Origin: an uncultured Alphaproteobacteria bacterium
GTDB taxonomy: Bacteria > Pseudomonadota > Alphaproteobacteria > Rs-D84
Direction of reading: 5' to 3'
Assembly: GCA_947646585.1 (NCBI GenBank)
Contig: CANSHD010000002.1
Location: forward strand, 136,997-200,996
DNA length: 64,000 bases
Part shown: positions 18,338-18,623 of the stretch, in pieces
How positions within the stretch are numbered: position 1 is the first letter of the stretch
Layout: every line of letters begins with the position of its first letter
The notes under the pieces: model-generated
The model's database searches: none
Told to the model about the DNA's origin: nothing
The model's input: only the letters and a program-made list of their open reading frames with translations
Made by a program: the position numbers and the translations under genes

Positions 18338-18366
18338 AATGCCCCGTTCGGGGCATTTTTATTTGG
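18338..18366 (+). terminator. Intrinsic terminator (aaatgccccgttcggggcattttt). The near-identical sequence recurs at 60569.
   Basis: Hairpin plus T-run. Confidence 0.7.
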
Positions 18367-18623
18367 ACAAGCGTGTGCTTTCAATATATAATTTATTACG
18401 TCGGCGGGTGTTCCGTCGGCGGGGTGTCAGAACCTCTGCTTTGGCGTCAGACAAAAGTGGCGCGACGCGCCTTTTTTGATATGACGAAAAACAAACTCCT
18501 GAACCGCGGGTCAGGAGGGTTGCGAATATATTGAATAAGCACACAATTCCAAAGATTGTTCTGAACCTCCTGACCACCAAATTTTGGTGGTTTTTTCGTT
18601 TCGAAAAACAGGAGAAAAGAATA
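18366..18623 (+). promoter_or_regulatory. Type A structured leader, copy 1: candidate riboswitch or attenuator
   Basis: Promoter-like tatataat, then three mutually exclusive hairpins. P1 is ctcctgaaccgcgggtcaggag (18497-18518). The antiterminator pairs ggtcaggagg with cctcctgacc (18567-18576). The terminator is ccaccaaattttggtgg followed by T6 (18576-18596), about 12 nt before the RBS caggag. The element is about 90% identical to 60599..60865. Confidence 0.65.

Follow-up and report, generated by a model that had tools for sequence, protein, structure and literature searches.

We analysed a 64,000-nt stretch of DNA, here called the window, from an uncultured alphaproteobacterium (GTDB lineage Rs-D84; assembly GCA_947646585.1, contig CANSHD010000002.1, positions 136,997 to 200,996 of the forward strand). 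The subject is the leader of a gene for a 162-amino-acid, cysteine (Cys)-rich secreted protein, which a first-pass annotation had flagged as a riboswitch or attenuator of no known class. The flagged region is a real, strongly conserved folded leader RNA of about 230 nt with a built-in terminator switch. The promoter (-10 box at 18387-92), the structured leader, three mutually exclusive helices, an intrinsic terminator and the ribosome-binding site (RBS) all lie within the region 18387-18623. The parts are the following.

18364-18392 (+): sigma-70-type promoter, TGGACA-17-TATAAT, matching at 11 of 12 positions
18400-18420 (+): H1, the 5'-terminal hairpin GUCGGCGG/CCGUCGGC with a conserved GUGUU loop
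18421-18436 (+): H2, a GGGG/CCUC hairpin whose loop carries UGU (18425-27) and X (CAGAA, 18428-32)
18439-18444 (+): Y (CUUUGG), which pairs with the P3 loop Y' (CCAAAG, 18549-54)
18445-18486 (+): H4, an arm CGUCA/UGACG that encloses T1
18459-18471 (+): T1, the hairpin GGCGC-GAC-GCGCC, followed by a U-run to 18477
18496-18517 (+): P0, the anti-antiterminator hairpin of a (CUCCUGA, 18496-502) with c (UCAGGAG, 18511-17)
18509-18575 (+): three-way junction, a core of the sRNA-Xcc1 type
18509-18518 with 18566-18575 (+): P1, closing helix and antiterminator, c GGUCAGGAGG with b CCUCCUGACC (DNA GGTCAGGAGG and CCTCCTGACC)
18522-18540 (+): P2, with the conserved loop GAAUAUAUUGAAUAA
18544-18547 with 18555-18558 (+): P3, CAAU/AUUG, with Y' (18549-54) in its loop
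18559-18563 (+): J3/1, which is X' (UUCUG)
18572-18592 (+): T2, intrinsic terminator GACCACCAA-ATT-TTGGTGGTT with a 9-bp stem, T-run to 18597
18609-18614 (+): Shine-Dalgarno (SD) sequence CAGGAG, strand d, complementary to b and a
18624-19112 (+): gene for the Cys-rich secreted protein, ATG at 18624

Two alignments were used: one of 31 leaders of the flagged subtype, called type A, and a wider one of 85 leaders that was fitted to the covariance model. In the 31 aligned leaders the -10 box is near-invariant and its distance to H1 is constant; the RNA would start about 7 nt past this TATAAT box. When compared with dinucleotide shuffles, the four leaders in the window have folding z scores of -4.7 to -5.9, that of the flagged leader being -5.2. 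With the promoter at 18364-92, these scores and 85 homologous leaders, the earlier call of a promoter-proximal, conserved structured leader stands.

The covariation is very strong and indicates that the 5' and 3' halves of the leader form a double pseudoknot. X, in the loop of H2, pairs with X' in J3/1, just 5' of CCTCCTGACC, and Y pairs with Y' in the loop of P3. Among the 31 type A leaders 100% of the X:X' cells are paired and five of the six pairs show changes on both sides; for Y:Y' the figures are 96% of the cells and, again, five of six pairs, with as many as five pair types at one position. The two type A copies in the window already differ in this way: Y/Y' reads CUUUGG/CCAAAG in the flagged copy (copy 1) and CUUACG/CGUAAG in copy 2, which amounts to two double substitutions in identical surroundings. 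Over the whole structure 95.4% of the cells are paired, compared with 34-53% in controls with a slid partner strand, and none of 500 shuffles reached the observed value. The joint X/Y helix of type A leaders came to 11.9 for cognate and 7.5 for non-cognate combinations (p = 2e-22). The hairpins covary as well. H1 is paired in 100% of the cells with double changes in seven of eight pairs (8/8 covarying in the 85-sequence alignment), and in the type A alignment the H2 strand G(A/G)GG changes in step with CCUC. A covariance model built from type A leaders of relatives gave 85 copies, and in their model-fitted alignment 45 of 47 nested pairs covary, including all seven of P0 and all four of P3. 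A continuous 27-nt strand (18549-18575) can run through four stacked helices, namely Y:Y', P3, X:X' and P1.

This pairing with the 3' junction, the core of the fold, had been missed in the first-pass annotation, which took the upstream part for a ligand-sensing region; with X/Y and X'/Y' paired in 96-100% of the cells, it is instead an RNA-RNA docking module. Tentatively, the complementary segments UGU (18425-27) and ACA (18541-43) may add a tertiary helix Z of 3 bp; it is paired in 96.8% of the cells, and its sole covarying pair comes from two related sequences. We also considered diversifying selection as an explanation of a "hypervariability" of X and Y, and found no support for it, as the variability of X and Y equals that of hairpin H1.

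The switch itself is built from four short strands. CUCCUGA makes up a, which is the 5' arm of P0, and recurs inside b, the 3' strand of P1; UCAGGAG is present as c and again as d, c mimicking the SD. Each of a and b can pair with either c or d (a:c, a:d, c:b and b:d). P1 shares nucleotides with three competitors: with P0 (a:c), with T2, whose 5' arm has 4 nt (GACC) in common with b, and with the b:SD pairing. Directly after P1 follows RCCA, which is ACCA in the flagged copy. The P0 hairpin CTCCTGA/TCAGGAG (18496-502/18511-17), the complementarity of GGTCAGGAGG to CCTCCTGACC and a terminator (T2, 18572-97) abutting the antiterminator strand by a 4-nt overlap had all been claimed before, and all three are present. 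The inferred design of anti-antiterminator, antiterminator and terminator is real, as a, c and b co-vary between subtypes. P1 measures 9-10 bp in 68 of 82 leaders, which represent 23 (c,b) haplotypes; P0 has at least 7 bp in 67 and the b:SD helix at least 6 bp in 55 of the same 82.

When the 3' domains of 31 leaders were folded under constraint, the P0 and P1 states came out nearly equal, differing in energy by 1.4 +/- 3.5 kcal/mol. In the P0 state T2 is predicted to be complete and b to be paired with the SD; in the P1 state the base of the T2 stem would be lost. The pairing of b with the SD adds masking of the RBS to the terminator logic described in the first-pass annotation. The duplex of the switch strand with the RBS region is predicted to have about -13.8 kcal/mol. 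The U-tract of T2 regularly precedes a complementary A-run (e.g. UUUUUCG-UUU-CGAAAAA at 18593-18608, with equivalents in the 31 leaders). Judged from this complementarity, the A-run would bring b and the SD together in read-through RNA.

A ribosome-mediated attenuator with a leader peptide was rejected, since no short open reading frame (ORF) is conserved and the variable positions are compensatory at the RNA level. The first-pass annotation had rightly seen no conserved start: an in-frame TTG ORF begins at 18531 in copy 1 and none is present in copy 2. The TTG frame of copy 1 (18531-18623), listed as a 193-aa (amino acid) ORF, opens in the P2 loop, crosses the terminator and continues into the main ORF. 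We likewise discarded the idea that the leader contains a conserved antisense promoter, since in the alignment the sole candidate -35 falls in the variable Y'.

The other leaders in the window are a second type A copy and two copies of a second subtype, type B.

60622-60868 (+): second type A copy with the identical part set, 226.6 bits with the type A covariance model
60662-66, 60673-78, 60693-705 and 60733-54 (+): X, Y, T1 and P0 of the second type A copy
60746-55 with 60803-12, 60786-91, 60796-800 and 60809-34 (+): P1, Y', X' and T2 of the second type A copy
60851-56 and 60866 (+): SD and ATG of the second type A copy
24668-24956 (-): type B copy ahead of the gene 24662..24027(-), 33.3 bits, E 3e-7; P1 GGUCGGGGAG/CUCCCCGACC, X AAGAAAA/UUUUCUU, Y AUAAUUGAA/UUCAAUUAU
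25576-25861 (+): type B copy ahead of the gene 25860-26363, 41 bits, E 2e-9

The duplication had been recognized in the first-pass annotation. The second type A copy (60622-60865 up to its ATG) is 85-90% identical to the flagged one (85% by blastn over 276 nt, 90% by MAFFT column identity) and lies upstream of a paralog with 55% amino-acid identity to the protein of the flagged gene; only the start of the flagged gene had been placed about 1 nt off. The "compensatory changes" described for the second hairpin, our T1, do not hold up: GGCGC-GAC-GCGCC and GGCGC-ATT-GCGCC differ in the loop, while their 5-bp stems are identical. The type B pair was recovered by a self-BLAST of the window, and the genes behind both copies are further paralogs. 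In the copy at 25576-25861 the X and Y helices are wholly replaced relative to the other type B copy with complementarity kept.

Relatives came from a scan of species-representative genomes, which yielded 80 loci in gut alphaproteobacterial metagenome-assembled genomes (MAGs), some of them Candidatus Enterousia. A BLAST search with the four leaders found matches just 5' of a Cys-rich homolog in more than 50 of the 80 loci. The leaders share about 80% nucleotide identity although the encoded proteins are only 45-50% identical, and in most loci the -10 box lies about 250-260 nt from the ATG. The type A covariance model detects 85 copies in the window and the 80 loci together; within the window it finds exactly the four leaders, matching both type B copies across its full length. 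About 73 of the 85 copies end a few nt from the ATG of a homologous Cys-rich gene, which leaves no room for another promoter. Five subtypes were distinguished by their P1 strands.

Subtype A: c GGUCAGGAGG, b CCUCCUGACC
Subtype B: c GGUCGGGGAG, b CUCCCCGACC
Subtype B': c GGUCGGGAAG, b CUUCCCGACC
Subtype C: c GGCAGGAGG, b CCUCCUGCC
Subtype D: c GGUUGGAGG, b CCUCCAACC

The switch strands c and b differ among the subtypes yet stay matched. T1 with its U-run, which had been described for both type A copies and is present in both, is missing in subtypes C and D; it is therefore an optional part rather than core.

Some leaders stand in other surroundings. Subtype D-like leaders precede small non-Cys proteins at L038:5841-6049(-), L039:5853-6052(-), L012:1360-1588(-) and L007:5936-6153(-), so the leader is not confined to the Cys-rich family; three of these four proteins have weak or borderline matches to XRE/Cro-type helix-turn-helix domains. 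Locus L016 contains tandem leader copies (3527-3728(-) and 3781-3992(-)), each with a TATAAT box and a terminator and with no convincing ORF, which may be stand-alone RNA genes.

The Rfam scan proposed in the first-pass annotation gave a mixed answer. Rfam 15 was run in gathering-threshold and E-value modes. No Rfam family reached its gathering score on the window leaders, and the flagged copy had no sRNA-Xcc1 match even at E<=10; asX2 and freshwater-2, which appeared on it, were dismissed as chance-level matches caused by terminators and the SD. The two type B copies of the window scored 34.4 (25576-25861) and 32.2 bits (24668-24956) with sRNA-Xcc1 (RF02221), under the gathering score of 53 bits. 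In related loci the RF02221 scores were 56.4 bits for the homolog L009, above the gathering score, 46.5 for L040 and 42 for L012; bona fide sRNA-Xcc1 controls from plasmid records reached 69-73 bits. The matched part is the three-way junction, and what had been called the antiterminator is the closing helix of sRNA-Xcc1. The type A model also matches the L009 leader in full length (37.9 bits, E 1.5e-8) and, weakly, a bona fide Aeromonas sRNA-Xcc1 member (13.5 bits, E 0.003). By these model matches, the flagged leader is a derived member of the phage c4-like/sRNA-Xcc1 lineage of antisense RNAs, and the earlier idea of an unmatched new riboswitch class is not supported.

In Rfam, sRNA-Xcc1 is an 87-nt model labelled as a trans-acting small RNA (sRNA). 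It was described as an 88-nt RNA of Xanthomonas campestris that accumulates as a discrete sRNA and starts at P1 (PMC2996969), and lies upstream of symE in integron cassettes (bioRxiv 10.1101/2025.06.18.660453) and of an ORF6N-domain gene in APSE phages (bioRxiv 10.1101/2020.03.17.996009). Like it, our leaders have a three-way junction with a closing helix that starts with GG, a 9-10-bp P1, a P3 hairpin, a J3/1 of about 6 nt and then RCC, and they lie just 5' of a gene on the same strand. The P2 internal loop AAUA(C/U)A..GAAUA (AAUACAAUA/GAAUA) has its type A counterpart in GAAUAUAUUGAAUAA, without an inner hairpin; the inner CCCGaAAGGG hairpin of P2 is missing from the flagged copy. P0 is found in the window leaders, whereas phage members have no P0-like hairpin (5.5 vs 5.8 bp), and P0 is therefore a lineage-specific addition. 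The window leader furthermore has a full intrinsic terminator where phage members have a hairpin of 4-5 bp only, and the gene downstream encodes a Cys-rich secreted protein rather than symE, an antirepressor or a BRO-family protein.

The discrete Xanthomonas sRNA raises the question of whether a switch is needed at all. The leader could be a constitutive sRNA gene, or a stabilising 5' untranslated region with a leaky terminator, its alternative pairings being by-products of repeated SD and anti-SD sequences. The accumulation of the Xanthomonas core (PMC2996969) and the two ORF-less tandem copies in L016 agree with this explanation. However, a, b and c co-vary across five subtypes in a way that preserves both P0 and P1, the 4-nt overlap of P1 and T2 is preserved, about 73 of 85 copies adjoin an ORF, and the distance to the -10 box is fixed at about 250-260 nt. 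We regard the absence of a switch as very improbable.

The sRNA-Xcc1 core motif has at least 120 matches in viral contigs, and 43 non-redundant phage and plasmid sRNA-Xcc1 loci served for comparison. In these loci an upstream H2-like hairpin with X in its loop is followed by Y, and the two are complementary to the cognate J3/1 and P3 loop; 63% of the cognate pairs and 14% of the non-cognate ones form an upstream joint helix of 12 bp or more (p = 4e-14). A second X/Y copy lies on the SD, with values of 74% vs 6% (12.5 vs 7.5, p = 2.5e-23). The genes behind these loci are antirepressors (Bro-N, KilA-N, Rha, P22_AR, AntA, ORF6N). In phage Aaphi23, for example, the element lies between q and ant, with copies of UCGAAA..CAAACAG both upstream of it and on the RBS. 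Bona fide members further resemble our leaders in their upstream H2(X)-Y module, which is followed by a T1-like hairpin and U7 (e.g. L205:1340-1612). Read from these complementarities, sRNA-Xcc1 in phages and plasmids has a c4-like layout with three X/Y copies ahead of antirepressor genes; we found no description of this layout of sRNA-Xcc1 members in the literature searched. The flagged type A leader differs in having no X2/Y2 copy on its RBS.

In c4 the upstream copy of the matching segments is called a1b1. The a1b1/a'b'/a2b2 layout of the phage relatives suggests a self-addressed antisense RNA of the c4, P4 CI or IsrK kind that acts in trans. Its short products, either the X/Y module ending at T1 or the junction that RNase P would free by cutting P1 at its GGU, would pair with the matching X/Y or X'/Y' on further transcripts of their own gene and so give gene-specific feedback; with the variable X/Y acting as an address, at least nine paralogs per genome would be kept orthogonal. 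T1 is a terminator-like hairpin with a U-run right after X/Y, here as in phage members, and the short isoform of IsrK acts on its own read-through isoform (PMC4825925). P1 begins with GGU in 67 of 82 leaders and is followed by RCC(A/U) in 70 of 82, which resembles the RNase P site of c4 (PMC5320573); the 88-nt Xanthomonas RNA starts at P1 (PMC2996969). Action in trans is nevertheless unlikely. Type A leaders have no cognate-specific a2b2/seqC-type copy of X/Y at the RBS (8.39 vs 8.48, p = 0.67), and complementarity of X' to the spacer between SD and ATG gave p = 0.09. H4 spans T1 and covaries, which places the 5' and 3' halves in one molecule; T1 is missing in subtypes C and D; X and Y are no more variable than the neutral hairpin H1 and show no sign of diversifying selection; and intramolecular pairing should win over pairing in trans.

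A metabolite or ion riboswitch would use the docked fold as a ligand pocket, with the ligand deciding between P0 plus T2 and P1. The fold is indeed large and pseudoknotted, its conservation is strong, many of its unpaired nucleotides are invariant, its states are near-isoenergetic, the expression platform is of textbook type, a leader peptide is not present and no known Rfam riboswitch class matches the leader. However, the complementarity of X/Y, X'/Y' and X2/Y2 in the phage relatives explains regulation without a ligand, as for c4 (PMC5320573), and the variability sits exactly in the pairing segments, which fits an address code rather than a pocket. The controlled genes encode Cys-rich secreted proteins, small XRE regulators and, in the relatives, antirepressors, and no pathway enzyme or transporter is among them. 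A ligand-driven switch therefore appears rather unlikely.

Taken together, we favour a cis-acting transcription attenuator and RBS gate that is built from a phage-type, c4-like (sRNA-Xcc1) module, and put its probability at roughly 0.55. Docking of the 5' module through X:X' and Y:Y' would lock P3 and P1; T2 would then lose the base of its stem and the SD would be freed from b, so that the gene would be transcribed and translated (ON). With c trapped in P0, T2 would form, and RNA that is read through would have its SD paired with b (OFF). Docking is expected to favour the P1 state because docking, P3 and P1 use a continuous strand that otherwise pairs with the RBS region. Candidate inputs are how much of the X/Y module is present or accessible, read-through at T1 and an RNase P-type cleavage at the GGU that starts P1. 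An RNA-level input is more likely than a small-molecule ligand because the RNA descends from c4-type RNAs; we rank an RNA-level input in cis, with or without processing at the start of P1, before a self-addressed one in trans, and a metabolite last.

Several points weigh against this attenuator. Conserved unpaired nucleotides are abundant (the H1 loop GUGUU, the P2 loop and the linker AAAAACAAA), and they could form a site for a ligand or protein. The flagged copy itself has no Rfam match, and its homology to sRNA-Xcc1 is traced by transitive steps via type B and L009. That the docked state is ON is something we infer; X' and Y' are formally free in both states, so that docking would discriminate only through stacking and competition for the 3' strand of P3. 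When folding is forced into P1, strand a is released and, by prediction, pairs with the SD, so that antitermination may not suffice for translation. Finally, a, b, c and d are nearly invariant within type A; because of this, the evidence on P0 and P1 lies only between subtypes, in a partly model-fitted alignment.

A more far-reaching scheme would be control by RNA alone, in which secreted or surface proteins are regulated by feedback gene by gene or are expressed in mutual exclusion. Each paralog would have its own X/Y address, the short products named above would act on the cognate leader only, and the whole would derive from a domesticated phage immunity RNA that is still spread by phages. 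We consider this scheme speculative and rather improbable.

The Cys-rich protein has 407 homologs, mostly from gut MAGs named "Alphaproteobacteria bacterium", with at least nine paralogous genes per genome. It has no Pfam match, and its AlphaFold model, of moderate confidence (predicted local distance difference test score 76.7), has no fold match in the PDB (best E 0.7). A full type A leader and a 162-aa Cys-rich gene are also present on a phage contig from IMG/VR (L208:9872-10603(-)), where they lie between the terminase and connector genes like a moron; the Cys-rich cassette is therefore still phage-borne. The same contig also encodes a T7-like terminase domain, a head-tail connector, DnaB and an XRE repressor.

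The duplicated unit of the window starts at the terminator of an unrelated upstream gene (AAATGCCCCGnnCGGGGCATTTTT, at 18337-18358 and 60570-60591), and two Cys-rich genes have a common 31-nt downstream terminator (AAAAACGCCGCAAGGCGTTTTTT, 97% identical, at 19106-19136 and 24003-24033(-)). Because their flanking terminators are shared, the Cys-rich genes look like terminator-to-terminator cassettes. The gene 5' of the flagged leader (16278-18335) encodes a 685-aa protein with no Pfam match and a Cys-rich tail (..CCGDEVYTSIGGGAYACCSQSSGDCYPPMF); judged from this tail, it may be related to the secreted Cys-rich theme. Elsewhere in the window, a 644-nt direct repeat with 93% identity (10136-10779 and 14342-14985) lies inside the minus-strand ORFs 9184-10878 and 14146-15240. 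The former encodes a GH108 lysozyme domain and a peptidoglycan-binding domain, and no Pfam match was obtained for the large neighbouring ORFs. Four tRNA genes with internal similarity are clustered at 8331-8714, and one more tRNA gene lies at 20654-20727. The window also contains a class A RNase P RNA gene (41574-41899(-), 180.8 bits), RNase P being the enzyme that matures c4-type RNAs, and encodes GcrA, which assigns it to an alphaproteobacterium.

With these results the call of an "orphan riboswitch" becomes a concrete and testable RNA machine with mapped parts. The 87-nt Rfam model of sRNA-Xcc1 covers only the core of a leader of about 200-250 nt with a double pseudoknot, and the phage sRNA-Xcc1 leaders have a c4-like three-copy address system ahead of antirepressor genes. 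The window leaders suggest a route of domestication, in which a phage immunity RNA gained a real terminator and an anti-antiterminator and now would gate a large family of Cys-rich secreted proteins, otherwise without annotation, in uncultured Alphaproteobacteria of the gut. As modular and orthogonal parts, the X/Y pairs could serve as designable RNA switches.

Among known systems, riboswitch expression platforms, including that of ZTP, resemble the leader in their promoter-proximal structured domain, in an antiterminator that shares nucleotides with an intrinsic terminator and in the anti-antiterminator; aptamers of the ZTP type also have distal subdomains joined by a pseudoknot. No Rfam 15 riboswitch model matched the window leaders in either scanning mode. 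The leader differs from such platforms in a gene context that implies no ligand and in its homology to an antisense-RNA lineage.

IsrK of the Salmonella Gifsy-1 prophage is likewise a promoter-proximal structured RNA with its own terminator, where read-through yields a translationally silent mRNA with alternative structures and a cascade of the antirepressor type is controlled (PMC4825925). The two differ in that IsrK activates in trans by pairing with orf45 sequences and has neither the three-way junction nor the double-pseudoknot architecture. There is no sequence or model similarity to IsrK in our leaders, and weak, chance-level isrK matches occur elsewhere in the loci only.

The closest counterparts are the c4 and P4 CI RNAs. 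No match to the c4 covariance model (RF01695) was obtained in the window, the leaders or the bona fide sRNA-Xcc1 loci; hence we call the flagged RNA c4-like and not c4, and it is either analogous or very distantly homologous to RF01695. According to PMC5320573, the RBS in c4 is blocked through a', b' and a2b2, and GGW at the start of P1 is where RNase P cleaves; the matching segments of P4 CI are seqA, seqB and seqC (PMC4825925). In our leader, by contrast, the RBS would be paired by the closing strand of the junction itself, an intrinsic terminator is built in, and the genes encode Cys-rich secreted proteins, unlike the antirepressor or lytic genes of phage immunity regions. The likenesses are a three-stem RNA that precedes the gene it controls and exposes two segments (a', b') complementary to an upstream a1b1 or seqA in the same transcript; complementary pairs that vary among relatives and stay matched; and a P1 start and end that resemble the c4 processing site. 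In P4 the outcome of such pairing is premature transcription termination.

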